Numbered from the stretch's first letter, positions 3,833 to 58,668 are shown. The stretch is DNA of 64,000 bases from an uncultured Eubacteriales bacterium (GCA_934444695.1 CAKSDF010000001.1:1446-65445), one strand, 5' to 3'. A program made the numbers and translations. The notes: a model not told the origin generated them from the letters alone.

Positions 3833-3982
3833 GCCGGCTGAGGCTATCAGCGCAGCTGATCGGAGGGAGGCTGCCGTAAAGATGCAGCTGCGGTTTGCAA
3901 GGTAGGCTTACCTTTCGGGCAAGGGTGCGGGACTGCTGCTCCCTCCGGTCTCGGCCGGGCCGAGACAGCCTCAGCGGCCGGC
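3833..3982 (+). repeat. Four-helix interspersed repeat, copy A
   Basis: GCCGGCTGAGGCT / ATCAGCGCAGCTGAT / CGGAGGGAGG ... CTCCCTCCG / GTCTCGGCCGGGCCGAGAC / AGCCTCAGCGGCCGGC. Intergenic between alr and the GH2-like gene. Confidence 0.8.
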
Positions 3983-4075
3983 CTAAAGCACAGCCCCTGC
4001 CAGCGCATTAAAAGGCGGCAACGGACGGCGGGTTAAGCAACAGCCGAAAAAACAAAGGGAAAAGGAAGAGGAAAA

Positions 4076-6772
4076 ATGAAGGCACAGGATGTTTTTAACG
4101 ATCGGTCGGCGGCTTTTTCCCGCTCGCCCCAAAAACGCAGCCGGTATATTCCGAGAAGTCGGGCTGCCGAGTTTTCCGATCTGACAAAGGGAGCGATGGA
4201 CCGTCGTCTTTCTCTTGGCGGGGCATGGTCTTTTTGTCTTTTTGACGGCATTTCCGAAATCGACGGCCGCCTTCTTGAAGCATCGTATGATCTTTCGGAA
4301 TTTGAAAAAATCGATCTGCCCAAATCCCTTTTAAGGGAGGAAGGACTGCCCTTTTGCTTTCCCGACATTCCCGACACCGCCAAGACAGCCCTCTTTTGCA
4401 GGGATGTTGACGTGGATTTTTCGGGACAAAAGACCTTCCTTGTATTTGAAGGATTTACGGGGGATCTTGCGGTCTTTATCAACGGCATAGAGGCGGGGTT
4501 TTCGTCGGGCAGCGGAAATCTTTGCGAATTTGACGTGACAAGATTTTTATCCCCGGGGAAAAACCGTTTTTGCATTGTGCTTTTGTCGGTTTGCAAACAA
4601 AGCTTTTTTAAATCGGCAAACCAAAGAAAATTTTTTGGAATAACCGAGCCTTTTTATCTTTTGACCCGCGAAAAGAGCCACATCTGCGACCTTGTGCTTG
4701 AGACCTCCCTTTCGGAGGGCTTTGGTCAGGGGACGGTTACGGCTGCCCTTTCGGGGGATTTTTTATCTGCCGGAAAATGCCGCCTTTTCGACGAGTATGG
4801 GACACTGGTTTCGAGCGGCGATTTTGACGAGGACGGAAAGACCGAGCTTTGCCTGAATTACCCTCGTCTGTGGTCGACCGAGCAACCCGATCTTTACCTC
4901 TTTGAGGCCGAGGTTTGCGGAGAATTTATTTATAAATACATCGGATTCAAACACATTGACTTTGACATAAACGAAGGTCTGCGGCTCAACGGGCGGAAAA
5001 TCCGTTTCAACGGAGGGGTTTACGATTCGGTCGGAAGGACCGAGAGTGAGGTCAAAAACGACATTTTAACCCTTAAACAAAACCACGTCGATGCCATTGC
5101 AATTAAGGGCGGGGATCATCTCGACCGCCTGCTTTCGCTGTGCGACCGTTACGGGGTGCTTGCAATTGCCGATGTGGGTATAAGTTCAGAAGCCTTTGAT
5201 CTGGCCGGCAGCCGCCGCATTTACGACGACGGAACAATATTCCCCATTATTGAGGAGGAAATTGCCGGGAGGATCATTCTCATCAGAAGTCACACCTGCC
5301 TTGCGGGAATAGGATTTTTCGATTTCTGCGGAGACGGGAAAAATGTTTATGACGCCATTTCCCTTTGCAGGGAGCTTTGCGGTGCTCCGATATTTTACGC
5401 CGGAGAACCGGCCGACACGGTAAGATCGAGCAGCTTTGAGCAGCGTCCCGACATATATTTTACCGACCGTTCCCTTAAAAGCTTTGACGATCCCTTTGCC
5501 GGCAAAAAGCCGGTGGCGGTTTTAGGAGAGGCTCCCGAGACCGACGACATACGGGTGCTTGGGGCCTTTGACCTTTGTCCCTTTGAGCATCTTTGGCAGC
5601 TTAAGGCCGCTCATCCCTTCTTTAAGGTTGACGAGATCGATGCAGGATCGGGAGATTTTTATATAACCAATCTTTTCGGCTTTTGCTATCTTTCCCACCT
5701 TGAGTGTTCCTTTGAGGTTACAAGCAGGGGAAAGGTTACGGCCAAGGGCTTTGTGGGGGCGCTGCCCCTTTCTCCCGGAAAGTGCGAGAAGGTACACGCC
5801 GATTTTGCGCTTCCCGCAGGGGATGAAAACTACATACGTTTTGAATTTAAGCGGCTGGGCGACTGCAAATGGGCCAAGGACGGATTTTCCGAAGGATCGG
5901 TGCAGTTTAAGCTTCCCGATCGTCCTTTCCACAGGACGCGCGGGACGGAAGAATATGAAACCGACGGCGGGCAGCAAGGGTTTGACCGCTTTGATATGGC
6001 CGACAGCGAGAATGAAGGCTTTGCAGGAAATGCAAGCGGTGCTGCCGATAACACAGCCGGTAATGTCGCTGATAATGCAGCCGATTATGCAGCTGATAAT
6101 ACCGCTGACAATACCGCTGCGCGGTCGGGCGCTCCCAAAACCGATGAAACCGACGGAAAGATCGTTATTTCGGGAAAAGATTTCAGATATGTTTTTTCAA
6201 AGCTTTCGGGCTCGTTTGAGCTTCTCGAGCACAGAGGAAAGAGGGCTTGCTCATCTCCTCTTAAATTAAAAATCTTTTGCAACAAGCGGCTTTTGCCCGC
6301 CTTTTGCTCGTCCGAGCTGTCGGTTGACGGAGAGCTTGCGGTCATAAGAAGCGAGGCGGTTTATATGGCCGAGGGTCAAAGCGGAAAACAGAGCTTTGTG
6401 GCGGTCTGGTGCATCGACAAAAGGGGCAGGATATCCCTCGACTGCTCGGTGCCTTCGGGAGATTTTGAAACCGACGGCGTTGGCCTTGACCTGGGTCTTG
6501 AAAACACCGATTTTGTCTACTTCGGCAGGGGAGAAAAATCGGGATATACCGGCATTTTCAGAACAAAAGGCGATTCCCGCCGACACATACGCTGCTGCCT
6601 GTTCGACAAGATAAAACGGCCGCTCTGCGTTTTCTGCAGCGACCGTATGACGGTTGAAACAAAGGACGGCTTTGCCACCTTTTCGGCAGGTCGTTTTGAC
6701 GGGGAAAGAGGCCTTTGCGAGCTGTCTCTTTGCATATGTCCAAGCAGGGAAGGCCGTTTGCTGTTTGAATAG
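4076..6772 (+). CDS. GH2 beta-galactosidase-like protein with degenerate catalytic motifs and a low-complexity insert
   Basis: 898 aa. LacZ-like sugar-binding domain pattern (FLVFEGFTGDLAVFINGIEAGFSSGSGNLCEFDVTRFLSPGKNRF). LNGRKIRFNGG sits where LNGKxxxxRGVNRHE is expected, followed by a TIM-barrel-like stretch and a C-terminal Bgal_small_N-like region. Insert: ADNTAGNVADNAADYAADNTADNTA. Confidence 0.55.
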   Translation: MKAQDVFNDRSAAFSRSPQKRSRYIPRSRAAEFSDLTKGAMDRRLSLGGAWSFCLFDGISEIDGRLLEASYDLSEFEKIDLPKSLLREEGLPFCFPDIPDTAKTALFCRDVDVDFSGQKTFLVFEGFTGDLAVFINGIEAGFSSGSGNLCEFDVTRFLSPGKNRFCIVLLSVCKQSFFKSANQRKFFGITEPFYLLTREKSHICDLVLETSLSEGFGQGTVTAALSGDFLSAGKCRLFDEYGTLVSSGDFDEDGKTELCLNYPRLWSTEQPDLYLFEAEVCGEFIYKYIGFKHIDFDINEGLRLNGRKIRFNGGVYDSVGRTESEVKNDILTLKQNHVDAIAIKGGDHLDRLLSLCDRYGVLAIADVGISSEAFDLAGSRRIYDDGTIFPIIEEEIAGRIILIRSHTCLAGIGFFDFCGDGKNVYDAISLCRELCGAPIFYAGEPADTVRSSSFEQRPDIYFTDRSLKSFDDPFAGKKPVAVLGEAPETDDIRVLGAFDLCPFEHLWQLKAAHPFFKVDEIDAGSGDFYITNLFGFCYLSHLECSFEVTSRGKVTAKGFVGALPLSPGKCEKVHADFALPAGDENYIRFEFKRLGDCKWAKDGFSEGSVQFKLPDRPFHRTRGTEEYETDGGQQGFDRFDMADSENEGFAGNASGAADNTAGNVADNAADYAADNTADNTAARSGAPKTDETDGKIVISGKDFRYVFSKLSGSFELLEHRGKRACSSPLKLKIFCNKRLLPAFCSSELSVDGELAVIRSEAVYMAEGQSGKQSFVAVWCIDKRGRISLDCSVPSGDFETDGVGLDLGLENTDFVYFGRGEKSGYTGIFRTKGDSRRHIRCCLFDKIKRPLCVFCSDRMTVETKDGFATFSAGRFDGERGLCELSLCICPSREGRLLFE

Positions 6773-6840
6773 GCCATTTTTCCGAAAGACTTTATCGGCA
6801 TCCGAATGATTGGTTTTGTCGGCATTACTTCATTGAGTTT

Positions 6841-8486: not shown

Positions 8487-8617
8487 CGGCAGAATTCCGT
8501 TGGTTGGTTTTTGATTTTTATTTGAATCTTTTTTGCGAAACAAGGCCGGAATTTTTGCCGAAAAACGGTCGGAAAAAATCGCTGCGACCCGCATATTCAC
8601 TGGGTTTTTTAAAGAAA

Positions 8618-8633
8618 TGTTTCACGTGAAACA
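8618..8633. promoter_or_regulatory. parS: parS (ParB-binding centromere-like site), perfect palindrome TGTTTCACGTGAAACA
   Basis: Exact 16/16 match to the palindromic form of the Firmicute parS consensus TGTTNCACGTGAAACA. A-run on the left, T-run on the right. Intergenic. Confidence 0.85.
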
Positions 8634-8752
8634 TTTTTGTTTGCCAAATCTTTCGCCGCTTCTCAGGACGATTTTCCGTTTAAAGGCGGTCGGTTAAAAG
8701 ACACTAAAGGAAAGGCTTTTGCGCCGTTGCTTAACCTCTGCGCGCAGCTGCA

Positions 8753-8900
8753 GCCAGCCGAGGCTATCAGCGCAAGCTGATCGGAGGGCGGCCCCTAAGA
8801 CTGCGGGACTTAAATTTAATTTATAAATTTGATTTATCGGCAAGATTTACGGCTGCTGCTCCCTCCGGTCTCGGCCGGGCCGAGACAGCCTCGGCGGTCG
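8753..8900 (+). repeat. Four-helix interspersed repeat, copy B
   Basis: CCGAGGCT / ATCAGCGCAAGCTGAT / CGGAGGGCGG ... GCTCCCTCCG / GTCTCGGCCGGGCCGAGAC / AGCCTCGG. AT-rich central insert. Confidence 0.8.
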
Positions 8901-9100
8901 GTCGCGGGACACGGTTTCGGCGGCACCACATTTACAAAGCAGCAGACGGTGACGGGCGCGCGGGCCAAAAGAGAGCAAAAAACCTGCGGCGGGTGGGTCT
9001 TGCCAATTTAAGCAACAGCCCGTCCGTCGGATTATATCGGATTACATCATTGGATTACATGGATTTAATCAAAAAACTCGAGGGAAACAAGGAGAGCAAA

Positions 9101-10627: not shown

Positions 10628-10733
10628 GCCTTTGATAAATTTAGCCCTTATCTTTTTTTAGCATTGCTGTCTTAACGGCGAGCTGCTTTTTGAGGATGTG
10701 GGCTTTTGTTTTGTTAAGCAACGACTTTAGGGA

Positions 10734-10874
10734 GCTGAGGCATTCTCGGCAAAGCCGAGACCGGAGGGAGCGATTTCACGCAATCCTGCCGACAAAGGTA
10801 AGATCGTTTTTTTTAGGTGCATCTTTGTTTTCATCAAAGCCTCCCTCCGATCAGCGCAAGCTGATTGCTTCAGC
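10734..10874 (-). repeat. Four-helix interspersed repeat, copy C (canonical module order on the minus strand)
   Basis: Plus strand reads GCTGAGGCA / TTCTCGGCAAAGCCGAGA / CCGGAGGGAG ... CCTCCCTCCG / ATCAGCGCAAGCTGAT / TGCTTCAGC. Confidence 0.75.
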
Positions 10875-11112
10875 GGCGGGACGGCACACCGCAGCGGCAC
10901 CGTATTTGTAAAGCGGCAATGCAGGCTTAACACATTTTTAACAATAAAGGGCGATAATTATTATTGTTGTTTAATGATAACTTTTGTGTTACAATACTCT
11001 TGTATCGCATCAACCGGGCAAACGATCTGCGGCGGTTCTCTAAATTAACCTTTCTGCCGCGCGGTTGCTCCGCTATATGCTTTTCACAAGCTTTACCGAA
11101 AGGATGATTTCA

Positions 11113-16473: not shown

Positions 16474-16507
16474 GGGCACGGAAGGCTTTTCCGTGCCCTT
16501 TTTATTT
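16474..16507 (+). terminator. Rho-independent terminator after htrA
   Basis: GGGCACGG aaggcttt CCGTGCCC followed by TTTTTATTT. Confidence 0.8.
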
Positions 16508-16651: not shown

Positions 16652-17085
16652 GTGCACCGCAATGACTGATATGGCACGGCTGAGGCCGCAGGGGGCACTG
16701 AGGTGTCAGCGCAAGCTGACCGGAGGGCGGGCCATCGGAAAACGCAAGGGTATAATCAGAGAAAACAGCGAGGTTTTTGTTGGCACGGCTGCGGTGTGAT
16801 GCGCCCTCCGTATTCTCGGCAGGGCCGAGAATACCTCAGTGCCCCTGCGGCCGGCGTTGTGTGCACCTTTAGCCTTGTGCACGGCTGCGGGTATGCTTTT
16901 GCTTTGTGCAATAACAGAAGGATTATGGTGTGGGAAGGCTTGCGGATGAGTGTTCGTTGACGGTAGAATTTTCATTACAAGAAGTCTTACTACCCCTCAG
17001 TCTCGGCGGTGCCGATCCTGCTCCGATGCCTTGGGGCGCCACGAGCTTAGTGTAAGTTTTTAGCTTTGTGCGTTGACGAAAGCTG
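16652..17085 (+). repeat. Extended (~435 bp) repeat unit containing four-helix repeat copy D (core 16684-16852)
   Basis: Core: GGCCGCAGGGGGCAC TGAGGT / GTCAGCGCAAGCTGAC / CGGAGGGCG ... CGCCCTCCG / TATTCTCGGCAGGGCCGAGAATA / ACCTCA GTGCCCCTGCGGCC. The whole 16652-17085 segment aligns with 25036-25477. Confidence 0.8.
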
Positions 17086-17262
17086 TTTATTGCTATTTGT
17101 GAAATGCTTTTAGTGCGGTTACGGGAAAGGCTTTTCTACGATTTTTTTGTCGGGATTTTTGCCCGCAAATGCCCTTTCTTTTTTCTTTTTTAACATATTA
17201 AGCAGATTTTTTTACATCTGCAAAATTTCTGCATTTTTGACGATTTTTTTGCCCGTAAGCCA

Positions 17263-17291
17263 TTGACAAAAATCCCCTGTCAGTTTATAAT
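17263..17291 (+). promoter_or_regulatory. Consensus housekeeping-sigma promoter upstream of deoR
   Basis: TTGACA (17263-17268), 17-nt spacer, TATAAT (17286-17291). Lies 44 nt upstream of the deoR GTG. Confidence 0.6.
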
Positions 17292-25035: not shown

Positions 25036-25477
25036 GTGCACCGCAACGACCGATATGGCATGGCCCAATGCCGCAGGGGCACCGAGGTGTCAGCGCAGGC
25101 TGACCGGAGGGCGGGCTATCGGAAAATGCAAGGTTTTCATCAGAGAAAGCAGCAAGGTTTTTGTTGGCACGGCTGCGGTGTGATGCGCCCTCCGTATTCT
25201 CGGCAGAGCCGAGAATGCCTCAGTGCCCTTGCGACCGGCGTTGTGTGAACCGTTAGCTTTATGCACGGCTGCGGGTTTGCTTTTGCTTTGCGCAAAGACA
25301 GAAGGATTATGATGTGGGAAGGCTTGCGGAAAACGTGTTCGCTGACAGTAGATTTTCGTTGTAAGAAGCTTTGACTACCCCTCAGTCTCGGTAAAGACGA
25401 TCCAGCTCCTTATGCTTTGGGGCGCCACGGCTTAGCTTAGTTTAAACTTTCAGTCTTGTGCATTGACGAAGGTGCTG
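25036..25477 (+). repeat. Extended (~435 bp) repeat unit containing four-helix repeat copy E (core 25070-25235)
   Basis: Aligns with 16652-17085 in the same orientation. Core: CCGAGGT / GTCAGCGCAGGCTGAC / CGGAGGGCG ... CGCCCTCCG / TATTCTCGGCAGAGCCGAGAATG / CCTCAG. Confidence 0.8.
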
Positions 25478-25590
25478 CGGGAAAATTTTCTTTTTCATTT
25501 ATCTCGGCGGTAAATGATGTTTTTTGCAGCAAATATTTTTCAAACAGCATAAGTAAAAGCCCTCTCCTCGGTTGGGCGATCGGGGAAAGA

Positions 25591-25716
25591 GCTTTTTTGC
25601 TTTTTATGATATTTTATTTGCTTTTATGATTGCCTTATGATTGCTTTTATCATTGCTATGATTGCATTATGATTACGATTACCTTATGAATTACTCTATT
25701 ATTACTTTAAGATTAT
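25591..25716 (+). repeat. Degenerate ~10-12 bp stutter repeat (TTATGATTGC-like, about 10 units)
   Basis: tttttatgata ttttatttgc ttttatgattgc cttatgattgc ttttatcattgc tatgattgc attatgattac gattac cttatgaattac. Lies downstream of the MATE stop. Confidence 0.65.
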
Positions 25717-32351: not shown

Positions 32352-32402
32352 CGGAAACGCGGCAAAAAGGCAAAACTCAAAAATGAACGCCAAGGTGAAA
32401 AT

Positions 32403-36151: not shown

Positions 36152-38722
36152 ATGAGTGAAAACGAATTTCAGCCCCATGCCAAGCAATTGGATGTGGAAC
36201 TGGTTGATGAAATGCGCAAGGCCTACCTTGACTATTCAATGTCGGTCATCGTGGGACGCGCCCTTCCCGACGTGCGGGACGGCCTCAAGCCGGTTCACCG
36301 CCGTATTCTTTACACAATGTATGAAAACGGGCTGACCCCCGATAAGGCATACCGTAAATGCGCCGATACCGTCGGTGCGGTGCTCGGTCGTTACCATCCC
36401 CACGGCGACGCCAGCGTTTACGATGCACTGGTTAGAATGGCCCAGGATTTCTCCCTTAGATATATGATGATCGACGGCCACGGAAACTTCGGTTCGGTGG
36501 ACGGTTATCCCGCCGCCGCATACCGATACACCGAGGCAAAGCTGGCCAAGATATCCATGGAAATGCTCCGGGATATCGACAAGGAAACGGTTGATTTCCA
36601 GTCAAACTACGACGACCGTTTAAAGGAGCCCACCGTTCTTCCTTCGAGAATTCCCAGCCTTCTGGTCAACGGATCGTCGGGTATCGCAGTCGGTATGGCT
36701 ACCGAGATTCCTCCACACAATTTAGGCGAAGTGGTCGACGGAATGTGCTATCTTATCGACAATCCCGAGGCCGAGGTCTCGGATCTTATGGAGCACATCA
36801 AGGGACCCGACTTCCCCACCGGCGGAATTATTATGGGATATTCGGGAATACGCGCGGCATACGCCACCGGCCGCGGAAAGATCGTCCTTCGCGGAAAGGC
36901 CGAAATTGAGGAAACAAGAACGGGATATTACCGCATTGTTATAACCGAGATTCCCTATAAGGTCAACAAGCAGGAACTTGTTAAGTCCTTTATCAACCTT
37001 ATGAAGGACAAAAAGGTCGAAGGAATCGACGACGTGGTCGACTATTCCGGTCAGGACGGAATGAAGATAGTGGTCGACCTTAAAAGGGACGCCAATCCCC
37101 AGGTGGTGCTTAATCAGCTTTATTCCTATACACAGCTTCAGGTCACCTTCGGCGCAATACTTTTAGCCCTGGACAAGGGCCGCCCGAGGATTATGACCCT
37201 TAAGGAAATGCTTCAGTGCTACATCGATTTCCAGTGCGAAGTGGTTACCCGCCGCACCATTTACGATCTGAAAAAGGCAAAAGACCGCGCCCACATTTTA
37301 GAGGCCCTTATAAAGGCCATCGATTTTATCGACGAGGTCATACGCATAATCCGCGGATCCAAGACCATTCCCGATTCTAAAATTGCTCTTGCCGAGCGCT
37401 TCGGTTTTGACGATGTTCAGACCACCGCTATTGTGCAGATGCCTTTAGGCCGTCTTGCAGGTCTTGAAAAAATGAAGCTTGAGGATGAGCTGGCCGGCCT
37501 TCACGCCAAAATTGCCGAGCTTGAAGCAATTCTCGGCGACGAGCACAAGATCAAAGAAATCGTTAAGGACGAGGCATATGCCATCCGCGATCGTTATGTT
37601 GACGACCGCCGCACCGAGATCACTATGGTTTCGGGCGAGGTGGACATTGAGGATCTTATTCCCGATGAGGAAAGCATACTGACCCTCACCCACAACGGCT
37701 ATATAAAGAGGCTTCCGGCCGACACCTATCGCCTGCAAAACCGCGGCGGCAGAGGTGTTACCGGTCTTGCCAAGAAGGACGACGATTTTGCCGAGTATAT
37801 GTTTACCTGCACATCCCACGAATATGTGCTCTTCTTCTCTAACCTCGGCAGGGTCTATCGGCTTAAGGCATATCAGGTGCCCGAGGGCAGCCGTACCTCC
37901 AAGGGACTTAACATTGTCAACCTCCTGCCCCTTGTGGAAAACGAAAAGATTACCGCCATGCTGCACATCCGCTCCATGGAGGAGCCCCTTAACCTTTGTA
38001 TGCTCACAAAGAAGGGTATAATCAAGCGCACCCCCATTTCTGCATACAATACGGCCAGAAAGGGCGGAATCATCGCCATCGACCTTGATGAGGACGACGA
38101 GCTTTGCTTTACGGCGCTGACCACCGGCGAGGACGAGATCGTTGTCGCCACAAAGAAGGGTATGGCCATCCGCTTTAAGGAAACCGATGCAAGACTTCTC
38201 GGCCGCACGGCCAGAGGCGTCAGAGCCATTAACCTTTCGGACGAAAAGGACGACAGCGTTATCGGATGCGCCGTTGTGGAGGACGGAAAGAGCATTCTGA
38301 CCGTTACCGAGACCGGCTTCGGACGGGTGAGCGATTTCGATAACTACCGTCTCCAGTCGAGAGGCGGAAAGGGCCTTATCAACTACCATACCGAGAAATT
38401 CGGCGATGTGGCCGCCGTGGCTGCCGTTTCGGGCGAAGAGGATGCCATTCTTATCTCTTCCGACGGTATTGTCATACGCATTCCCACCATCAGCATCAGC
38501 AAGTTTGCCCGTCCCTCCAAGGGAGTTAGGGTTATGAGAACGGCCGAGCAGGATAAGGTTATTACCCTTGCTTTGACCCCCCACGAGGAAGAAGAGCAAA
38601 CCGATGAGACCGCCGATGTTGACGAAATCGCAGAAAACGGTGAAAACGGCGCAGAGGGTACAGCCAATGTGACCGATGCAGTCGATACACAGGAAGATAG
38701 TGGCGAGGATTCCGATAACTGA
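36152..38722 (+). CDS. gyrA: DNA gyrase subunit A
   Basis: 856 aa. [16 protein letters not shown], the active-site region AAYRYTEA and C-terminal beta-pinwheel repeats, ending in an acidic tail. Confidence 0.95.
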
Positions 38723-38780
38723 AATGTTGTCGCTGCTGAATAAACCGCCAATTGTATAATTTTCTTATATATAAAAGAGA

Positions 38781-38818
38781 AATCTCCCGGGCAAAAACGC
38801 TCGGGAGATTTATTTATT
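38781..38818. terminator. Bidirectional rho-independent terminator between gyrA and the convergent gene
   Basis: AATCTCCCG ggcaaaaacgct CGGGAGATT. Followed by TATTTATT on plus, and by a T-rich run on minus. Confidence 0.6.
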
Positions 38819-38860
38819 ATGCAGAAAACAAATTGTATGTAGGTTGGTATGGCCGATCGG

Positions 38861-39397
38861 TCAATACTCCTTTTTTGCTTTGACGATACCTTTTAGGTAG
38901 GCAAAGGTTTTTTGCTCGCCCTTTTGCGCAAGCATTTTTAAAAGAAACTCGAGAAAGGCCGCCGTTTCGGGATGCATAGTGCGGGAATCGATGCCCTTCA
39001 TATAGTATTCGAGGGGATAGTTGTCGGTATAATCCTCTCCGCGGTATATCTTGCTGGCCGCTACCCTGTCGCAGAACATCTCGGCCGCATACCGAAGGGG
39101 CATTTTTACCGGACAGACCTGCTGCTTTTTAATGTCGAAATCGGTCCAGTATTCAAAATGATGCTTGTTTCTGCCCTTGTGGTGCATCCAGGCCGAGGAA
39201 TAGCCGAAAAGCTCGCGCTCGGTGACGTTGGGACTGCGTTTGCCGTTATAGTACTTTGCGCCGGGAATAAATTCGGCGGGAGAATATTTAGAAAGGTCGT
39301 GCAAAAGGCCGCGAAAGCCAAGCCCCGCTTTAAAGCAGTGGGATATGACCTTGTGGCGGTGTTTTGTTATTGTGCGAAAGTGCTTTAAGGGGTGCAA
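38861..39397 (-). CDS. Conserved hypothetical protein (resembles the DUF5662 family, from memory)
   Basis: 178 aa. HRHKVISHCFKAG...LLHDLSKYSPAEF...WMHHKGRNKHHFEYW is a His-rich conserved pattern. Confidence 0.45.
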   Translation of the reverse strand: MHPLKHFRTITKHRHKVISHCFKAGLGFRGLLHDLSKYSPAEFIPGAKYYNGKRSPNVTERELFGYSSAWMHHKGRNKHHFEYWTDFDIKKQQVCPVKMPLRYAAEMFCDRVAASKIYRGEDYTDNYPLEYYMKGIDSRTMHPETAAFLEFLLKMLAQKGEQKTFAYLKGIVKAKKEY

Positions 39398-39517
39398 AAA
39401 GGGTCCTCTCCTTGCTTAAGCTTTTGTGGCTGTTTTTTTGCTTTTGTTAAAATCCCGGCAAAGCTTTTTGTCAAAGGGGGATTTCCGTCCCTAAAAGGGG
39501 TTTCTTTTCGGGAAAAT

Positions 39518-40822
39518 TTATTCCTTCCCTTTTCTGACCAGCTTTTGAAAGAGAAAGCGGGAGGTATCCTCCACACGCTGCATGGCAATGTTGATTTCGC
39601 TGAAGGCGCGGCACATTTCGTCAAAACGCACCCTTTCCCTTTTGTGCTCGTCGCTTTTGAACCGTTCGGCCACATGCTCATACCGTTTTACCGCCTTTTC
39701 GACGGCATCGTCCCAGGAGATGTATATCTCGTCCATGGCGGTTTGGCCTAAAACCTTCAGTTTATCGCGATTGTCGCAGGCATAGGAAAGACATTTTGCC
39801 ATAGATTCGCCGTTTTCGTCGATCAAAAGGCCGGTTTTTCGGTCCTCGATGCCTTCCGAAGCGCAGCTGTCCTTAAGCAGAACGCTGGCCTTGCCGCAGG
39901 CTGCCGCTTCACGCACGACTATGCCGTTTGTGTCGAAAGAGGAAGGAAAAAGGAAAAGATCCGAAAGGGTGAAGTATCCGCGGATGGTCTCACGGTTATG
40001 TATGGCGCCGGTGAAAATGCATCGGTCGGAAATGCCCAAGGTTTTGGCGTAGGCCTCTATTTCCGGCCGCTCGACGCTGTCTCCCACAAAGATCATACGG
40101 AAGTCTTTTCCCTCTGCGGCAATTTCCTTTAATCCGTCGAGAATGATCCTTGCGCCTTTATACCACATCAGCCGTCCCACAAAGAGGAACACCGGGACAT
40201 CGGGCGAAAGATTATGCTTTGCCCGCAGCTCCTCCACAAGCTCATCGGAGGCAAGGCCCTTTGAAAGGTCAACGCCGTTTTCCATAACCACGTAGTCCCC
40301 TTCATATCCGAGACCGCGCAGATTTTCTCCGGCCCCCTTGCTCACCACCCACACCTCATCGCAGGCAGAAATGTTGTTTACAAGGAACTTTTTGGCGGTT
40401 TTGCGGAGGAAATTCATCTCCACCGCCTTGTTTATTTCGATGTCGAATTTTGTGTGGTAGGTGAAAACAATGGGAGCGTCGACCTCCTGCTGAACCATAC
40501 GTGCCAGAAAGGTTGAGGAAAAGGGACAATGGGTATGCAGCAGCACGGGATGCGACGATTTTATGGCATTTATGGCCTTTTTTCCGAAGGGATAGCCAAG
40601 GCGGTAGCCAAACCGCTTTGTTGTGTTTAAGCTTGAATACCGGATGACCGGAAAGTCGAAATTGCTGTCGTCGGCTCCGGGGTATGATGGTGTGGCCACC
40701 GTCACGTCGATGTCTTTGCCGGTCATATATTTTGCATAATTAACTACGGCGTTTTCCACCCCGTCGATAAGGGGCGGGAAAGAATCGTTTAAAAGACAAA
40801 CCGAGCCGTTTTTAAACATCAA
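39518..40822 (-). CDS. GT4-family glycosyltransferase
   Basis: 434 aa. N-terminus LLNDSFPPLIDGVENAV; C-terminal FPSSFDTNGIVVREAAACG (EX7E-like region). Confidence 0.75.
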   Translation of the reverse strand: MMFKNGSVCLLNDSFPPLIDGVENAVVNYAKYMTGKDIDVTVATPSYPGADDSNFDFPVIRYSSLNTTKRFGYRLGYPFGKKAINAIKSSHPVLLHTHCPFSSTFLARMVQQEVDAPIVFTYHTKFDIEINKAVEMNFLRKTAKKFLVNNISACDEVWVVSKGAGENLRGLGYEGDYVVMENGVDLSKGLASDELVEELRAKHNLSPDVPVFLFVGRLMWYKGARIILDGLKEIAAEGKDFRMIFVGDSVERPEIEAYAKTLGISDRCIFTGAIHNRETIRGYFTLSDLFLFPSSFDTNGIVVREAAACGKASVLLKDSCASEGIEDRKTGLLIDENGESMAKCLSYACDNRDKLKVLGQTAMDEIYISWDDAVEKAVKRYEHVAERFKSDEHKRERVRFDEMCRAFSEINIAMQRVEDTSRFLFQKLVRKGKE

Positions 40823-40862
40823 ATCACCTTATCTTAAATGATTAAACGATTATATGCGGAAA

Positions 40863-42134
40863 TTATCCGATAATGTCGGTGTTCATATACTTTCTAAGCA
40901 CCTCGGGAACGGTAACGGTACCGTCGGCGTTCTGATAGTTTTCAAGAATTGCGGCCACCGTTCTGCCAACGGCAAGGCCCGATCCGTTGAGGGTGTGTAC
41001 AAACTTGGCTTTATCACCGGCTCCGTCCTTATAGCGGATGGCGGCGCGGCGGGCCTGATAATCCTCGAAATTGGAGCAGCTGGAGATCTCGCAATAGCGG
41101 TTGTAGCTGGGCAGCCATACCTCGATGTCGTAGGTCATTGCCGAGGAAAATCCAAGATCTCCGGCCGACAGGCAGACAACACGATAGGGCAGTCCAAGCA
41201 TCTGAAGCAGCTTTTCGGCGTCGTTTGTAAGGGTTTCAAGCTCGTCGTAAGAATGCTCGGGCTTTACGAATTTAACAAGCTCGACCTTGTGGAACTGGTG
41301 CTGGCGAATAAGGCCTCTTGTGTCCCTTCCGGCAGAGCCTGCCTCGGCGCGGAAACAGGCCGAGAATGCGCAATATTTAAGGGGAAGCTTGCTGCCGTCG
41401 AGAATGTCGTCACGATACATATTCGTTACCGGAACCTCGGCGGTGGGGATAAGGAACTCGTCCGAGCCGTGGATGCGATAGGCATCCTCCTCAAACTTGG
41501 GAAGCTGGCCGGTGCCGGTCATGGATGCGCGGTTGACGAGATAGGGCGGGATGATCTCCTCATAGCCGTTGTCGGCGTGGGTGTCCATAAAGAAGCAGAA
41601 AACGGCGCGCTCAAGACGTGCGCCCAGTCCTCTGTAAAAATGGAAGCGCGCGCCCGATACCTTGGCTGCGGTTTCGGGATCGAGAATGCCCAGATCCTTG
41701 CCCAGATCCCAGTGAGCCTTGGCTTCAAAATCAAACTTTCTCGGCTCGCCCCAACGGCGCAGTTCGCGGTTTTCCTTGTCGTCCTCACCGTCGGGAATGG
41801 TGGGGTTGGGCATATTGGGAATGGAAAGAAGGATGTTTCTCTGCTTTTCGGTCAGCTCGGAAATCTCCTTGTCGCATTCCTTAACATCGTCGGAAAGGGT
41901 CTTCATGCGGGCCATAATCTCCGAAAGATCGCCGCCCTCCTTTTTGATGCGGGGGATTTCCTTTGATGCGGCGTTTTGCTCGGCCTTGAATTTATCGGCC
42001 TTACTGCTGATTACACGGCGCTGCTCGTCGATTTTAAGCAGCTCGTCGATGGCGGCGGAATAATCTCCGTTGCGGCGGTTGACGGCCGCTTTGACCGCCT
42101 CGGGATTTTGTCTTATAAGTTTAATATCTAACAT
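40863..42134 (-). CDS. serS: Seryl-tRNA synthetase
   Basis: 423 aa. N-terminal coiled-coil arm ([12 protein letters not shown]...) and class II motifs ([29 protein letters not shown]). Confidence 0.95.
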
Positions 42135-42149
42135 AAATTACCAACCTTT

Positions 42150-42995
42150 CTATTCTCCCAGCTTGTTTGCCAGATCCTTTAATTCGTTGACGTTGTAAAA
42201 TTCTATTTGAAGTGTGCCCTTACCCTTGTTGGCCAGCACCTTTACCCTACGGCCGAGGTTTTCCGAAAGCGAAAGCTCAACCTCGTCGTAAATGCTGGGG
42301 CGGGAACGCAGTTTCGCCATTTTTTTACGTTTATCGGCTTCGTTTGCGTTTTTGGCCATATCCTCGATGGTGCGGACGTTTGCGCCGGTGGATGCAGCCT
42401 TTGCCGCCTTGCGAAGTGCGCGTTTATCGGTAAAGGCAAGCAATGCACGGCCATGGCTGGCCGAAATGATGCCGGTTTTCATCAGCTCGAGAATGTCGTC
42501 GGGAAGCTCGAGCAGACGGATGGAATTGGCCACCGCCGAACGGGATTTGCCCATTCGCTCGGAAACCTCCTCCTGAGTCAGGCCGAAGTCGTCCATAAGG
42601 CTTTTATATCCGGCCGCCTCTTCAACCGGATTAAGATCCTCTCTCTGGAGGTTTTCCACAAGGGCTATTTCGGCCGTTTGGGAATTGCTCAGCTCCTTTA
42701 TGACCACCGGAACGGTGGAAAGGCCGGCAATGCGGGAGGCCCGCCAACGACGCTCACCTGCCACAAGCTGATAGCGGTCGCCCTTTACCGGACGCACCAC
42801 AAGGGGCTGAAGCAGGCCGTATCTTTTGATGCTGTCGGCCAGCTCCTCAAGAGCCTCCTGATCGAAGTCTTTACGGGGCTGATCCCGGTTAGGTTCGATA
42901 TCCATAATGGAAATTTCGGCGGGAGAATTGGGTTCTGTGGTGTTTTCGGCAAAAAGCGAGCCGAGACCTTTATTGAGTCCGCCTTTCTTGGCCAT
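42150..42995 (-). CDS. parB: Chromosome partitioning protein ParB/Spo0J
   Basis: 281 aa. LGKGLGSLF-like N-terminus, the ParB box GERRWRA, and the HTH region LTQEEVSERMGKSRSAVANSIRLL. Confidence 0.9.
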   Translation of the reverse strand: MAKKGGLNKGLGSLFAENTTEPNSPAEISIMDIEPNRDQPRKDFDQEALEELADSIKRYGLLQPLVVRPVKGDRYQLVAGERRWRASRIAGLSTVPVVIKELSNSQTAEIALVENLQREDLNPVEEAAGYKSLMDDFGLTQEEVSERMGKSRSAVANSIRLLELPDDILELMKTGIISASHGRALLAFTDKRALRKAAKAASTGANVRTIEDMAKNANEADKRKKMAKLRSRPSIYDEVELSLSENLGRRVKVLANKGKGTLQIEFYNVNELKDLANKLGE

Positions 42996-43078
42996 TTAAC
43001 TCATCCTTTCTTTTTTGAACATAAATATGTATGAAGATTGCTGCCGATAATGGGGGCGTTTATAATGCTTAGAAAAAA

Positions 43079-43310
43079 TGTTTCACGTGAAACATTTTTA
43101 AAAACATATCGCCCGAAGGCCTTTATTTCAAGGGCGTGCAGCCTTTTGAAACGGGTGGATTTAAGCCTGTTCGGCGTCCGGTTTAAACGATCGGATGGGC
43201 AGCAAAATCAATTGAATCCGTTTTGGGAAATAAATTGTTTCACGTGAAACAATTTTTAAGATAAAATGGGATGACGCGGAATTTAACAACAAAATGTTTC
43301 ACGTGAAACA
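43079..43310. promoter_or_regulatory. parS: Three perfect parS sites in the parB-parA spacer (43079-43094, 43236-43251, 43295-43310)
   Basis: Each is an exact TGTTTCACGTGAAACA. The last two are 59 bp apart. Confidence 0.85.
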
Positions 43311-43320
43311 TTTTTTCGCT

Positions 43321-44088
43321 TTATTTTTTGTTGCGCTTTAAAAGCTCCTTTGAAAGCTCGCTGTATGCTCTGGCGCCCTTGGAGGATTTATCGTAGTACA
43401 TTATGGGCAGGCCGTAGCTGGGGGCTTCGGAAATTCTGACCGCACGGGGAATGGCGGTTTTAAAGAGCTTTTTGGGGAAGAACTTTTTGACCTCCGAAAC
43501 CACCTGACGGGTAAGGTTGAGGCGGTTGTCGTACATGGTCAGCACGATTCCCTCAATTTCAAGAGAGGGGTTGTAAAGCCGCTTTATCTGCTTTGTTGAC
43601 GATACAAGCTGAGAAAGTCCTTCGAGAGCGTAATATTCGCACTGAATGGGGACGATCATGGTGTCGGCGGCGCAAAGGCAGTTTATTGTAATGAGGCCGA
43701 GGGAGGGCGGACAATCGATGAAGATGTAGCTGTATTTGTCGACGATGGGAGCAAGCGAGCGTCGAAGGCGGGAATCCCGCTGTTCCATAGCGCAAAGCTC
43801 GATTTCGGCGCCTGCAAGATCAATGCTGGAGGGAATGATGTCCACTCCCTGAAATTTTGTGTGAACTATGGCCTTTTTAACCGGCTCGGAGCCTATCAAA
43901 AGGTCATAACTGCTTACTTTAACATCTCTTTTGTCGATTCCGTAGCCGCTGGTGGCGTTTCCCTGAGGATCAAGGTCCACAAGAAGCACCTTTTTGCCCA
44001 GCTTTCCCACTCCCGCCGCAAGGTTGACCGCCGTTGTGGTTTTTCCGACGCCTCCCTTTTGGTTGGCAATGGCAATGGTTTTAGACAA
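43321..44088 (-). CDS. parA: Chromosome partitioning ATPase ParA/Soj
   Basis: The ORF extends to a GTG at 44097. I prefer the TTG at 44088, 6 nt after GAGGTG, which gives MSKTIAIANQKGGVGKTT (deviant Walker A). Confidence 0.9.
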   Translation of the reverse strand: MSKTIAIANQKGGVGKTTTAVNLAAGVGKLGKKVLLVDLDPQGNATSGYGIDKRDVKVSSYDLLIGSEPVKKAIVHTKFQGVDIIPSSIDLAGAEIELCAMEQRDSRLRRSLAPIVDKYSYIFIDCPPSLGLITINCLCAADTMIVPIQCEYYALEGLSQLVSSTKQIKRLYNPSLEIEGIVLTMYDNRLNLTRQVVSEVKKFFPKKLFKTAIPRAVRISEAPSYGLPIMYYDKSSKGARAYSELSKELLKRNKK

Positions 44089-44272
44089 GCATAACACCTC
44101 TTATTTGTCTGAAAATGCAGATTTGTGTGCATCCTGCGCCGCAGCAAGCGGGTTTTGGAACGCATCTTTTTAAATCATATTATATAATCATATTATATAT
44201 TGTAAGTATATCACAATGTCGGACAAAATAAAAGGGGTTTTTATCCGTTAGGGCATATTTTTTGCTGCAAAT

Positions 44273-44409
44273 TGTTTCACGTGAAACAATTTGCAGTCCA
44301 AAAAAGAAAACAGCCCGGTTTTCCGCAAAAAAATGTTTCACGTGAAACAATTATTGCGGTCAAATAGATCGCGGTAAAAAATATCCGAAGAAATGTTTCA
44401 CGTGAAACA
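44273..44409. promoter_or_regulatory. parS: parS triplet (44273-44288, 44334-44349, 44394-44409)
   Basis: Exact 16-mers with 61- and 60-bp spacing. Confidence 0.85.
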
Positions 44410-44644
44410 TTCCGAAGGTCAATATGGTTTGCGGGATTTTCGACTGCCGTGTTATTTGATGAGGCAGCGAAGCATTAATATTGCACATATTTCTGTTGCG
44501 ATATATATTTTGGCAGAGGCGTATGGTATACAATACGGTTACATCTCGATTATATCAGTCGTCCGCAAAAGCCAAATATATAGGCTTGCAAAGTGATTAA
44601 ACAATGCGCTGCATCTGATCGGCAAAGAAATATAGCTAATAAAT

Positions 44645-44721
44645 TGTTTCACGTGAAACAATTATTGTTGTCAAAAGCGATGCGGCTTGAATTTTCCGAA
44701 AAAAATGTTTCACGTGAAACA
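44645..44721. promoter_or_regulatory. parS: parS doublet (44645-44660, 44706-44721)
   Basis: Exact 16-mers with 61-bp spacing. Confidence 0.85.
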
Positions 44722-44953
44722 TTTTATAAATACATTATAAATGCAATGCTCTATCGGCTTTGTTGCAAAGACCGACTGCTGCCTTGTGGGACGTGGTACA
44801 CAGGCGGTGAGGTGGCAATTGTGCCTTGTAAAGCGCAGCGAAATATGCTACAATAATGAAGAAAAAACATATGGCACTTTCGGAATAAATGGTCAATCTA
44901 TCTATGGCGAGGCAGCGCCTGCGCTCCGATATGTGCAAAGACGGATTAAAAAT

Positions 44954-45091
44954 TGTTTCACGTGAAACAATTTTAACCCACAAATCGAATGCATCCCGGA
45001 ATTTTCGCAAAATAATGTTTCACGTGAAACAATTATGACCGAAAAACAATAATCCGGGGAAAAACAAAGAAAAAATGTTTCACGTGAAACA
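44954..45091. promoter_or_regulatory. parS: parS triplet (44954-44969, 45016-45031, 45076-45091)
   Basis: Exact 16-mers with 62- and 60-bp spacing. The last site ends 14 nt before the next CDS. Confidence 0.85.
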
Positions 45092-45105
45092 TTGGCGGTG
45101 AAAAA

Positions 45106-48594: not shown

Positions 48595-48787
48595 TGGGAA
48601 AAGCGGTTTTGTCCGTTAATCCCGGCATACGTTTTGCCGATCCGATAAACATAACTGTTCTGAATTACGATGCTGATACCTTAAACCCGACGGTTTATCC
48701 GTCGGTTATTTTTTTGCAGAAACTGATTTTTCGCTATAGCCTAAGTCCCTTGTTTTATGCGGGTTTCAGCAATTTTAAAATCAAAAA

Positions 48788-48880
48788 TGTTTCACGTGAA
48801 ACATTTTTTAAAGCGTTTTTGGAGAAGCAGCCGATACCGCCGAAATTGTAAAAACCATAATAATTGTTTCACGTGAAACA
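48788..48880. promoter_or_regulatory. parS: Two perfect parS sites (48788-48803, 48865-48880)
   Basis: Exact 16-mers with 77-bp spacing, intergenic. Confidence 0.85.
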
Positions 48881-48991
48881 TTTCATAAAGAAGTTTGTGC
48901 GGTGTGCTGTATAGTTGCTATGGTATCTGGTCTTTTTCGGCTGTTCGGAATCCCGATTGAGTGCGATTAAATTAAGGCTGTTTTTTCATTC

Positions 48992-49135
48992 GGCCGCTGA
49001 GGCGGTCTCGGCGGGGCCGAGACCGGAGGGAGCAGTGATTTGAAAAATTTACGATAAAGCAAAGCCTTCATTTTAAATTATGCCTGCGGTTTTATCATAG
49101 CCTCCCTCCGATCAGCTTGCGCTGATAGCCTCAGC
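48992..49135 (-). repeat. Four-helix interspersed repeat, copy F (canonical order on the minus strand)
   Basis: Plus strand: GGCCGCTGAGGC / GGTCTCGGCGGGGCCGAGACC / GGAGGGAGC ... GCCTCCCTCCG / ATCAGCTTGCGCTGAT / AGCCTCAGC, followed by TTTTTTT. Confidence 0.8.
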
Positions 49136-49254
49136 TTTTTTGCAGCCCGCCACGATTTGTTCCTTTTTGATTTGGAGATATAGCAGGGTTTATTGTTGCT
49201 GCAAAATGGCAATATTATACAATATATCTGACTTTAAAAGCGGTAGACGGCGTA

Positions 49255-50721: not shown

Positions 50722-50817
50722 CAAGGTTGATCGTGCTGCCTTGCGGTTTAATCATCTTTTTTTGCATCGATAGTGTTTCTTTATAAAGAAAATGCTTATG
50801 GCTTTATCCCCCGTCCC

Positions 50818-50966
50818 GCCGCCGAGGCCAGTCCCGGCAAGACCGGGACCGGAGGGAGCAGCTATTTGCAGACTTACCAACAAAGCAAGACCTGCCTAAA
50901 AAAACACATCCACAGATTTAGCGCAGCCTCCCTCCGATCAGCTTGCGCTGATTGCCTCGGCTGGGC
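50818..50966 (-). repeat. Four-helix interspersed repeat, copy G (canonical order on the minus strand)
   Basis: Plus strand: GCCGCCGAGGCC / AGTCCCGGCAAGACCGGGAC / CGGAGGGAGC ... GCCTCCCTCCG / ATCAGCTTGCGCTGAT / TGCCTCGGCTGGGC. Confidence 0.8.
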
Positions 50967-51300
50967 TGTGCGTTAACCCATATGGTTTCAGATCCCGTAA
51001 GCCTTTGGCCGATCCTGTCCAATTTTCATTATTCTCATTATGGCTGCGATGCCCGGCGTGCGGTCTCGCATTTTCCGCAAAAAAGCTTCACTAAAAAACG
51101 CAAAAAAATAACAGGTTGGGATAAACGTGCTTTGTAATAAAGCGGTTTTTCTCAACCTGTTTAAAATTTAATTGATGGGATGTTGTCCCGTTTGATTTTG
51201 CCTGTCGGTCGGTTCGGCGAGTCGGTCGGTTTTTGGTAATCGGTCGATTTTCCGACTATCTGCCGATTCCCCGGCTGCCGGCCGGTATTTTGATTAAGCC

Positions 51301-57306: not shown

Positions 57307-57426
57307 AATATCCTTCCTTTCGGGAGATTGTTTAAGTTTTTGTTTGTATTTAAAATCGGTTTTTGATGGTTGGTTTTTTGTTTAAAACAGGGCAGGTTTT
57401 GCGGCCGAAAAATATGCTTTAAAAAA

Positions 57427-57442
57427 TGTTTCACGTGAAACA
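57427..57442. promoter_or_regulatory. parS: parS, perfect TGTTTCACGTGAAACA
   Basis: Exact 16-mer, intergenic upstream of argF. Confidence 0.85.
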
Positions 57443-57647
57443 TCGATCGCTGAACCCCGCATTTTTACTGGGTAAATCGACATTCGACCGTACACTTTTC
57501 GACCGTTTTTGCAAGTTCAAATCGGTGCTTTAACCGTCGGCTTTCGTCGGCTGATTTTAATTATTATAATCGTTTTTTTGCCGTTTTTACCTGCCCGTCG
57601 GTCATCGCGGGTTTGAGACGGCATCAACCGGGCCTTTCCGGCAGGCT

Positions 57648-58409
57648 TTAAAACTGGGAATAATAATCCCCGTTGTCCTTTTTCTTTTTGGTCTCCCTGC
57701 GCCTTGTGGCTATGGCAAAGACCGCCACCCCGATTATGGCGATAACAACCACAACAATGGCGATGGTCGAGTATCTTACCCGCGCATCGGCCTGCTCCTG
57801 GGTCTCGGTGTTGGAGATGGTCTTTGTTATATAGGCCGTGTCGAATATCGATTGGGCCTGCGCTTTATCCTGCTCGGTCATTTCGGGAGCGTAGTACATA
57901 ATGGAATACTGCAGGCCGTTTTTGACGGTGGTCATAAATATGGTGTCGGTGGTTCTGCTGCCCGAAGAGGCAAGCTCAATGTATATGTAGTGGCCGTCCC
58001 CCTGGTCGACCTCGGTTTTGGAGGTTACCTCATAGCCGTTGCCGTTGAAGGAAGATGCAAGGGTCTTGTAAACCTCTACAATCCTGTCGCTGTCGGAAGC
58101 TTTAAGCTCCCATATGTCGATGGTGACCTCGCTGCCGAAGATGGCCACGCTGCAGGTGCGCCCGCTTTGGTCCTTGGCATAATAAACCCCGCCGTCATCA
58201 TTCTTAAAGGTGGTGAGCACATCGGGGTCTATGTTATATTCCGAAAGGGCAGGATCGTCGGTCGAAAGGTCGGCCATTTCAAAGACCCTCATGCTTTCGG
58301 GAAAGGAAATTTTAAAGTAGCTTTCGGCATCTTCATACTGGGTCATCCCGCAGGACGAAAGACAAAGCAGCATTACCGCCGCCGTCAGCAGACATAAAAA
58401 TCGTTTCAT
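57648..58409 (-). CDS. Putative lipoprotein with a C-terminal TM anchor, unknown function
   Basis: Signal peptide with lipobox-like LSSC, plus a C-terminal hydrophobic helix and basic tail (IAIVVVVIAIIGVAVFAIATRRRETKKKK). Confidence 0.5.
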   Translation of the reverse strand: MKRFLCLLTAAVMLLCLSSCGMTQYEDAESYFKISFPESMRVFEMADLSTDDPALSEYNIDPDVLTTFKNDDGGVYYAKDQSGRTCSVAIFGSEVTIDIWELKASDSDRIVEVYKTLASSFNGNGYEVTSKTEVDQGDGHYIYIELASSGSRTTDTIFMTTVKNGLQYSIMYYAPEMTEQDKAQAQSIFDTAYITKTISNTETQEQADARVRYSTIAIVVVVIAIIGVAVFAIATRRRETKKKKDNGDYYSQF

Positions 58410-58514
58410 TTTTTAAAGCTCCTTTTGAGTTTTTAAGGGTGTTTTTGATTTCGGACGGAATGTGCAATGTGCAGAGGGCTTTTGTCAACGCTCAAGAAGG
58501 AAAGTCTTAACCAA

Positions 58515-58668
58515 GCCGCCGACGCTGAGGCTGTCAGCGCAAGCTGACCGAAGAGCAGCCTGCCTGCAAAACCGCAGCCCATAAGAAATGGTCGGTCTTC
58601 CGCTTTTAGAAAGAATGACGAAAGGCTGTGCTCTTCTGTCTCGGCGGGGCCGAGACGGCCTCAGCGGC
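58515..58668 (+). repeat. Four-helix interspersed repeat, copy H (divergent P3)
   Basis: GCTGAGGCT / GTCAGCGCAAGCTGAC / CGAAGAGCAGCC ... GGCTGTGCTCTTCTG / TCTCGGCGGGGCCGAGAC / GGCCTCAGCGGC. Confidence 0.75.

Follow-up and report, generated by a model that had tools for sequence, protein, structure and literature searches.

The stretch analysed here, called the window throughout, comprises 64,000 nucleotides (nt) from an uncultured Eubacteriales bacterium (GCA_934444695.1 CAKSDF010000001.1:1446-65445). It is the origin region of a chromosome of a spore-forming member of the Clostridia, with dnaA-dnaN-recF-gyrB-gyrA, parAB, dpaAB and rny, and no transposase is found in it; judged by YifB, the nearest named relatives are Caproiciproducens and Caproicibacter, at 62-66% identity, while a YifB of 99% identity is carried by more than 100 Logan runs. 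Genes were called with a codon-usage caller trained on those window genes that have Pfam support. Between these genes lie eight copies, A to H, of a palindromic repeat whose two arms are predicted to fold into a four-way junction, and it is this repeat, its fold and its likely mode of recognition that are considered here.

Eight copies of a junction-forming repeat

A covariance model (R1) was built from 37 copies, a chance match (L086; loci outside the window carry such numbers) having been taken out of the seed alignment. Run over the window with filters off, R1 returned exactly eight hits, at 113-149 bits: A (3827-3985, +), B (8747-8905, +), C (10724-10884, -), D (16687-16850, +), E (25071-25234, +), F (48986-49145, -), G (50811-50971, -) and H (58514-58675, +), with nothing beyond them at E<0.1. 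The strands opposite to these, referred to below as the complements of the listed strands, scored 24-52 bits, as expected for a quasi-palindrome. A first-pass annotation of the sequence had listed the same eight copies on the same strands and had described four helices, P1 to P4, with a set of paired differences between copies; the model recovers all eight, and the order of the helices and the paired differences proved correct.

The window copies align over ~150-165 nt and consist of two inverted arms around a poorly alignable insert of ~70 nt. Each arm is ~35 nt long and runs from GCTGAGGCN through a short palindrome to CGGAGGGAG; the conserved 5' arm reads GCTGAGGC-N-RTCAGC-GCAA-GCTGAY-CGGAGGGMG and the 3' arm CKCCCTCCG-GTCTCGGC-NNN-GCCGAGAC-N-GCCTCAGC, so that GCTGAGGCT...CGGAGGGAG recurs, around different hairpins, in the 5' arm and in the reverse-complemented 3' arm. 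These hairpins, P2 (with a GCAA loop in most copies) and P4, are the side hairpins of the junction. At up to three mismatches each arm pattern matches the window six times, against 0.00 expected in shuffles.

With RNA parameters the minimum-free-energy fold of every window copy is the four-way junction of P1, P2, P3 and P4, and copy F folded with DNA parameters gives the junction on both strands, with z about -4. The eight copies were then compared with 39 others from a sister metagenome-assembled genome (MAG) and gut metagenomes. In the resulting 47-copy alignment, which was fitted to the covariance model and thereby favours structure, 97.0% of stem cells are paired, vs 36-48% when the partners are slid by 1-3 columns; double-sided change is seen at 16 of 32 pairs (108 cells), and none of 500 shuffles matched any of five covariation measures. 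P1 and P3 are paired in 96-97% of cells and covary, and RNAalifold on a MAFFT alignment recovered the same P2, P3 and P4. The single base that stands on each side between P1 and P2 or P4 covaries as well (AU 13, UA 12, CG 3, UG 1), so that P1 has 9 bp and the junction no unpaired linkers; P3 is also of 9 bp, closed by C70-G164 in 41 of the 47 copies, and given these two pairs the junction is fully paired. All variants of P3 set a purine strand against a pyrimidine strand (GGAGGGAG, GGAGGGCG, GAAGAGC, GGAGAGCG, GGGAGGA, GGAGGAGG). Mismatches occur in B (C.T in P3), C (A.C in P1) and E (C.A plus U.G in P1).

Selection acts on the fold. That it is kept by compensatory change had been claimed from the eight copies, with the persistence of paired positions in further copies named as a check; this is now seen among the paralogs in the 47-copy set and also among orthologs, copy H being set apart from its ortholog by double-sided change at three pairs. 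In the central insert RNAalifold detects no conserved structure on either strand, and the individual folds of the insert vary between families. One locus outside the window (L055:10765-10956) carries a 30-nt insertion, a small hairpin (AACCGATG...CATCGGTT), placed exactly in the P2 loop, the remainder of the junction being intact.

Helix positions were taken from the covariance-model alignment. In copy A (core 3837-3975, 134.5 bits), P1 at 3837-3845/3967-3975, P2 at 3846-3860 with a loop of only 3 nt (GCA), P3 at 3861-3869/3939-3947 and P4 at 3948-3966 enclose a centre at 3870-3938, and with the outer stem and tail the element extends over about 3826-4040, all on the + strand. Copy B (core 8757-8895, +, 130.8 bits) has P2 at 8766-8781, P3 at 8782-8790/8859-8867 and P4 at 8868-8886, followed by the 3' tail motif TTTACAAAGCAGCAGACGG. 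On the - strand, copy F (core 48996-49135, 149.2 bits) has P2 at 49111-49126, P3 at 49102-49110/49024-49032, P4 at 49005-49023 and an outer helix, GGCTG/CAGCC, that spans A-rich internal loops. The cores of the remaining copies of this form are at 10734-10874 (C, -, 123.6 bits), 50821-50961 (G, -, 140.7 bits) and 58524-58665 (H, +, 113.3 bits), the last with the P3 variant GAAGAGC/GCTCTTC. Copies D (16675-16861, core 16697-16840, +, 131.9 bits) and E (25059-25245, core 25081-25224, +, 130.8 bits) are paralogs, 91% identical over 255 nt, and make up a long-stem subtype with a 14-bp extra outer stem, GGCCGCAGGGGGCAC/GTGCCCCTGCGGCC in D, plus a CACGGC/GUUGUG helix.

Conservation between paralogs reaches into the flanks, where GCAC(G/A)GCTG recurs 12-22 nt upstream of P1 and GG...GCACAGCC downstream; CGGCTG and CAGCCG in these flanks are complementary and form an outer helix. 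A 3' tail, TTTACA(A/G)AGCGGCAACGG, is found in A, B, C, L017 and L073. Copies D and E have a composite of ~450 nt in common, which includes a downstream repeat of ~250 nt, termed module X (16853-17100 after D and 25236-25490 after E, both +); at D, module X holds a further GCACGGCTGCGG motif and a degenerate stretch resembling the 3' arm (16989-17024). The module has no Rfam match. It is missing from the ortholog of D (L010, flanks 96% identical), truncated in two orthologs of E (L005, L009), and longer and internally duplicated in a third locus compared with E as ortholog (L027). A long-range helix between D and module X, seen in a 471-nt fold, was dropped, as it is not conserved in E.

Copy C (10734-10925) has its flanking motifs in the + orientation of the window and its core inverted relative to them, and its P2 loop is flipped as well, with GCAA on the + strand and TTGC on the listed strand; its ortholog (L043:1571-1726) is in the same state. 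This suggests an inversion between the inverted repeats of the element, followed by flipping of the hairpin. With few exceptions the loops of P4 consist of purines only or of pyrimidines only, and they come in reverse-complement pairs (AAA/TTT, AGG/CCT, AAG/CTT, AGA/TCT, GGG/CCC), as repeated hairpin flipping at the DNA level would produce. Both features are rearrangements of DNA of a sort typical for palindromes, and as such they speak for the reading favoured below.

Selection on the arms at each locus

Comparison of orthologous copies separates the arms from everything around them. Over nine ortholog pairs, identity is 94.4% at the 62 stem positions, 76.3% in the insert and ~79% in flanking intergenic DNA where alignable. 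Between the window and the sister MAG, 241 of 248 arm positions agree (97.2%), compared with 1699 of 1964 fourfold-degenerate sites in ten flanking genes (86.5%; P = 7e-9 for the difference) and 215 of 283 positions of the central insert (76%), which therefore changes faster than synonymous sites. Gene conversion or concerted evolution was considered as a cause of the arm conservation and rejected: orthologs have locus-specific variants in common (TCCCGG/CCGGGA in G, the 3-nt P2 loop of A, the flipped P2 loop of C), so the arms are not being homogenised among paralogs. These sequence comparisons are read most simply as purifying selection, at each locus, on the sequence of the arms and on their pairing alike.

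Distribution, genomic setting and history

Among species-representative genomes a 23-mer of the 5' arm was found in two only: CAJJNV01 ("uncultured Ruminococcaceae bacterium ERR1600611-bin.79"), with nine loci, and CAKSPR01, a Hadza gut MAG, with one; in all ten matches the 3' arm follows within 140 nt. A gapped pattern of both arms gave 90 metagenome loci, of which by R1 only about 24 are real, mostly from assembly ERZ857629; the others, from soil, freshwater and similar sources, are chance matches. The whole window has no match in Rfam 15 at gathering thresholds, and permissive Rfam scans of the A and D regions gave chance-level matches only (E>=2). No match was obtained among viral contigs (exact arm pattern) or among plasmids and phages (blastn), and a full-text literature search, which covered the arm sequences as well as repeats with four-way junctions or from Clostridiales, returned nothing relevant. 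The family is lineage-restricted, and the first-pass description of a structured repeat of REP/BOX/MITE type without a name holds; we describe it as a new variant of interspersed palindromic repeats.

All 47 copies are intergenic. Their gene contexts are co-directional in 22 cases, convergent in 12 and divergent in three, and in co-directional contexts ten copies point with the genes and 12 against them. Recognisable intrinsic terminators stand between the upstream gene and the element, and promoters beyond the element; at D, a terminator at 16474-16498 is followed by the element (16684-16852) and then by a perfect TTGACA-17-TATAAT promoter at 17263-17291, and E and F are set in a similar way, with separate canonical terminators upstream of the element. 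These positions agree with the earlier statement that all copies are intergenic in mixed orientation, and with the argument drawn from it against a classical cis-regulatory leader. The same annotation had noted that only copy F is followed by a T-run; F is indeed the only copy that adjoins one (49136-49141), but the run is on the + strand of the window and so lies 5' of F on its listed strand.

This setting bears on whether the repeat acts in cis as RNA within transcripts, for instance in their 3'-end or read-through regions, its very stable junction blocking 3'-5' exonucleases, pausing or terminating RNA polymerase, or insulating neighbouring operons. Either orientation would serve, since the reverse complement forms the same junction, and the excess of convergent over divergent contexts places copies downstream of genes. 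Selection in situ on the pairing of arms ~100 nt apart would act most naturally through RNA, copy C with its inverted core presents GCAA on the transcribed + strand, and for REP, ERIC and Correia elements such effects are on record (PMC10969869). However, terminators already precede the element at D, E and F; a hairpin followed directly by a U-tract, as in intrinsic terminators, is not a feature of the family; the more stable strand does not track transcription (6 vs 5 families); and stability alone would select for pairing, not for near-invariant arms (97% vs 86.5% at synonymous sites). We consider a cis-acting RNA unlikely, while giving it some weight.

The two strands of the element are not equivalent. 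Of the 47 copies, 30 have the more stable fold on the listed strand, with a mean advantage of 7 kcal/mol over the complement, and among the 14 families with |ddG| >= 8 kcal/mol the listed strand is the better one in 12 (P=0.013); the modelled stems hold 33 G.U pairs and 15 A.C pairs, and most P2 loops are GNRA-like (GCAA, GUAA or GUGA), with the P4 loop free to vary. Three related ideas were tried and set aside. That the G.U-rich strand tracks local transcription held for five of six window copies and failed over all loci; replication skew does not fit as the source of the asymmetry, because in six of the eight window copies the G+T-rich leading strand (called from GC skew, with oriC placed near dnaA) is the other one; and for a promoter belonging to the listed strand no conserved -35/-10 pair is seen in the aligned flanks.

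The asymmetry could also mean that the copies are genes for independent small RNAs read from the listed strand, each a four-way-junction scaffold with a GNRA loop and a variable centre of ~70 nt. The better folding of that strand, its G.U pairs and its loops point this way, and guide-type RNAs are laid out in this way, with a conserved scaffold and a variable centre. Yet no conserved promoter is found upstream of the listed strand and no terminator downstream, the centre shows neither conserved structure nor covariation and evolves faster than synonymous sites, there is no corresponding Rfam family, a density of eight such genes per 64 kb would have no precedent, and the asymmetry could stem from a founder copy rich in G and T. 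We give this explanation little credence.

The window is also rich in sites that resemble parS. A palindrome, TGTTTCACGTGAAACA, which matches the Firmicute parS consensus, TGTTNCACGTGAAACA, is present in seventeen copies (8617-8640, 30892-30911, 32860-32879, three at 43078-43300, nine at 44272-45095, two at 48787-48885, and 57426-57445), an unusually large number for 64 kb; the nine sites at 44272-45095 are spaced ~60 nt within groups, and the array fills a spacer of ~1 kb that adjoins parA/parB. Gene order about the origin (27903-44097) is unusual for a Firmicute, dnaA-dnaN-recF-gyrB-gyrA being followed by serS-parB-parA on the opposite strand in place of parAB upstream of dnaA, and cumulative GC skew has a local minimum near 24 kb. 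Other short repeats are found in this region: three tandem units of ~45 nt (CGGGAAACGACGCTGAAGCTGCAAAAA...) at 2159-2276, between a glycosyltransferase/flippase gene and alr, and four to five short direct repeats similar to TTATGATTGC at 25616-25715, in an AT-rich spacer beside a MatE gene ~2 kb upstream of dnaA. Copies B and F and locus L047 lie within ~120 nt of a parS-like site.

Such surroundings, rich in oriC and parS features and with three copies so close to parS-like sites, would suit a platform of duplex DNA in which P2 (ATCAGC-N4-GCTGAT) and P4 (GTCTCGGC-N3-GCCGAGAC) serve as operator-like palindromes for dimeric or nucleoid proteins, possibly linked to the organisation of the origin region. 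The half-sites are near-invariant, the P4 spacer is free, and the arms are conserved beyond the needs of pairing. Against this, copies are found on many contigs of the MAG and are not confined to the vicinity of the origin; and models that involve only duplex DNA fail because the covariation of P1 and P3 joins positions ~100 nt apart. A duplex platform is accordingly a very improbable account of the family.

The history of the sites could be followed through orthologous spacers. Contig CAJJNV010000014 of the MAG is collinear with the window, and orthologs exist for seven of the eight window copies (A and C-H), with flanks 81-96% identical: L073 for A, L043 for C, L010 for D, L005 for E, L006:443-602 and L015 for F, L006:2544-2702 and L011:10358-10516 for G, and L011:2553-2714 for H, a further ortholog of E (L009) being carried by the more distant Hadza MAG. 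Among genomes 88-96% identical no gain or loss was seen. The element is absent in relatives whose YifB is 88, 80, 79, 72 and 66% identical, and these keep the order alr-GH2-SpoU-YitT-yifB wherever the contig retrieved extends to the upstream genes. Sites A, B and C are empty among relatives L101-L107: the alr-GH2 spacer has 21 nt in L101 vs 452 nt in the window (3624-4075, copy A), the YitT-yifB spacer 11-44 nt in the relatives (L101-L106 for site B) vs 506 nt (8487-8992, copy B), and the yifB-metA spacer of L106 is without copy C. The short alr-GH2 and YitT-yifB junctions of the relatives look operon-like; the two window spacers hold terminator-like hairpins and a parS-like site besides the repeat, so that intergenic DNA in this lineage has grown by far more than the repeat accounts for. 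Presence or absence at orthologous intergenic sites, which had been put forward as a check, shows retention in close genomes and empty sites in relatives. The copies were therefore gained in a recent common ancestor, that of a small uncultured clade of Oscillospirales (nearest named genus Caproiciproducens), and have been inherited vertically at fixed sites.

This pattern of gain might be that of an ordinary MITE (miniature inverted-repeat transposable element), an internally deleted insertion sequence with P0/P1 as its termini, moved by a DDE transposase encoded elsewhere, with the hairpins and the junction incidental. A length of 150-250 bp, terminal inverted repeats, intergenic position, mixed orientation and presence or absence between relatives all fit a MITE. 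But the element is GC-rich and not AT-rich; no target-site duplication was seen, and no parent insertion sequence, none of the ten genome matches being a long coding version; the internal helices P2, P3 and P4 covary and surpass the termini in conservation, unlike what constraint on terminal repeats alone would give; and copies are kept intact at orthologous sites under purifying selection. That the family consists of ordinary MITEs seems improbable to us.

A folded single strand as the proposed recognition site

As duplex-only models fail, orientation to genes is random and neither promoter nor terminator belongs to the element, we favour recognition of a folded single strand by a protein, in the manner of the intergenic palindromic repeats known as REPINs and BIMEs; we put the chance that this reading is right at about even. 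In single-stranded DNA, or in a transcript made in either direction, the two arms would pair to form P1 and P3, while the palindrome of each arm would form a side hairpin, P2 capped by a G..A tetraloop and P4 by a free loop of 3 nt. The product would be a fully paired four-way junction on a long rod, to which the semi-conserved flanks would add outer helices. This folded junction would be the recognition site of a trans-acting protein specific for both sequence and structure; by analogy to REPs and REPINs, the protein could be a single-copy HUH-Y1 enzyme similar to RAYT, or a comparable enzyme, that once spread the element, still acts on it, or both. The host would tolerate or make use of the copies, in spacers between genes that are untranscribed or at 3' ends. 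The relevant strand may be single-stranded DNA or RNA, in keeping with the two options of the earlier proposal, an RNA stabiliser or terminator and a protein-bound DNA structure.

Several observations weigh against this reading. No Y1_Tnp domain is encoded in the window, and no Y1 transposase was found by tblastn with a validated IS608 TnpA probe in the window and 107 related and unrelated loci (~720 kb); as RAYTs are single-copy genes, this negative carries little weight. Beside P2 and P4 no GT[AG]G foot is conserved; GGTAGG follows P1 in a few families only, its place in the window copies being taken by GGCCGG, GGTCGG or GGCGGG. Near-identical paralogs are limited to D and E, which gives no sign of current mobility. 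Neither a target-site duplication nor a clean insertion boundary can be defined from flank alignments, which show common motifs and not locus-specific direct repeats, or from the empty sites, because empty and filled spacers do not align. The listed-strand folding bias, the excess of G.U pairs and the GNRA-like P2 loop are what a strand-specific RNA or single-stranded DNA substrate would show. Finally, given selection on the arms at each locus, selfish spread alone is insufficient, and a role at the level of the host or in situ is needed.

Such a role is central to a further possibility, that the repeat is no decaying remnant of a mobile element and instead a functional module maintained by the host: a fully paired structure resembling a Holliday junction, with sequence-specific arms and a dedicated protein that reads it, either as a new class of strand-specific structured RNA or as a junction in single-stranded DNA. 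As RNA it may be a GNRA-capped scaffold with a variable centre, and as single-stranded DNA it may act in replication, recombination or chromosome organisation of this lineage of Clostridia. We think a host-maintained module of this kind distinctly unlikely.

The favoured analogy to REPINs and BIMEs rests on several likenesses. REPINs are inverted doublets of REPs that are vertically inherited and persist for long periods (PMC3116915; bioRxiv 10.1101/2021.07.10.451892), and the present family likewise has two inverted conserved units around a spacer, each with its own palindrome, which form a long hairpin in a single strand; it is strictly extragenic, dense, and persistent through vertical inheritance at orthologous sites (PMC3116915, PMC3337134, 10.1101/2021.07.10.451892). 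Typical REPs carry a tetranucleotide foot beside the hairpin, GT[AG]G, or CnGA in class 3 (PMC6006769). The RAYT (Y1_Tnp) gene of such systems is single-copy and has copies on its flanks, a layout termed REPtron. Unlike REPINs and BIMEs, which occur in Proteobacteria and are mobilised by HUH-Y1 transposases of RAYT type, the family described here has units of ~35 nt with two different hairpins, a fully paired four-way junction supported by covariation, no GT[AG]G foot, a Firmicute host (Oscillospirales), and no clouds of near-identical copies. The density, about 1 per 8 kb, resembles that of REPs in E. coli.

Likenesses extend to other repeats. With Correia, ERIC, RUP, BOX and bcr1 elements the family has in common a length of 100-250 bp, intergenic position in both orientations, stable stem-loops predicted in transcripts and a presence that varies between related genomes (PMC10969869). 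Those elements are usually AT-rich, with defined terminal inverted repeats and target-site duplications, and decay after insertion, whereas the present arms are GC-rich, have no detectable target-site duplication and are kept better than synonymous sites. For Correia elements the target-site duplication is TA. Single-stranded DNA substrates of HUH enzymes, namely IS200/IS605 ends, PATEs and the T-shaped inverted terminal repeats (ITRs) of parvoviruses such as adeno-associated virus (AAV), offer a parallel in small palindromes set off a larger one and in inversions of flip/flop type. The ends of IS200/IS605 elements are not mutually complementary and flank a transposase gene or its remnant, and the ITRs of AAV form three-way junctions at the ends of its genome; for the present family no linked HUH gene is found in the window and the loci searched. 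Strand-specific recognition of single strands in HUH systems is in line with the folding bias of the listed strand (PMC6006769). Of the features that define MITEs, inverted termini (P0/P1) and insertion polymorphism are seen. With the GT[AG]G foot absent and the MITE features (PMC10969869) present only in part, the family is therefore filed under neither REPINs nor MITEs; its unusual traits are the fully paired four-way junction supported by covariation and the strength of selection on the arms.

Much work has been done on interspersed palindromic repeats in Proteobacteria, Neisseria and streptococci, and hardly any on those of the uncultured Oscillospirales, which dominate metagenomes of the gut. 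The present family amounts to a natural experiment, in which a set of 62 arm positions is kept roughly fivefold better than synonymous sites, compensatory changes restore pairing, and the centre is left free. It provides direct evidence of selection at each locus on a repeat of this kind, and so bears on whether elements like REPINs live as parasites or have been domesticated by the genome. The covariance model serves as a marker of the clade, flags a likely cause of breaks in assemblies, and defines a substrate with which to find the protein that recognizes the junction.

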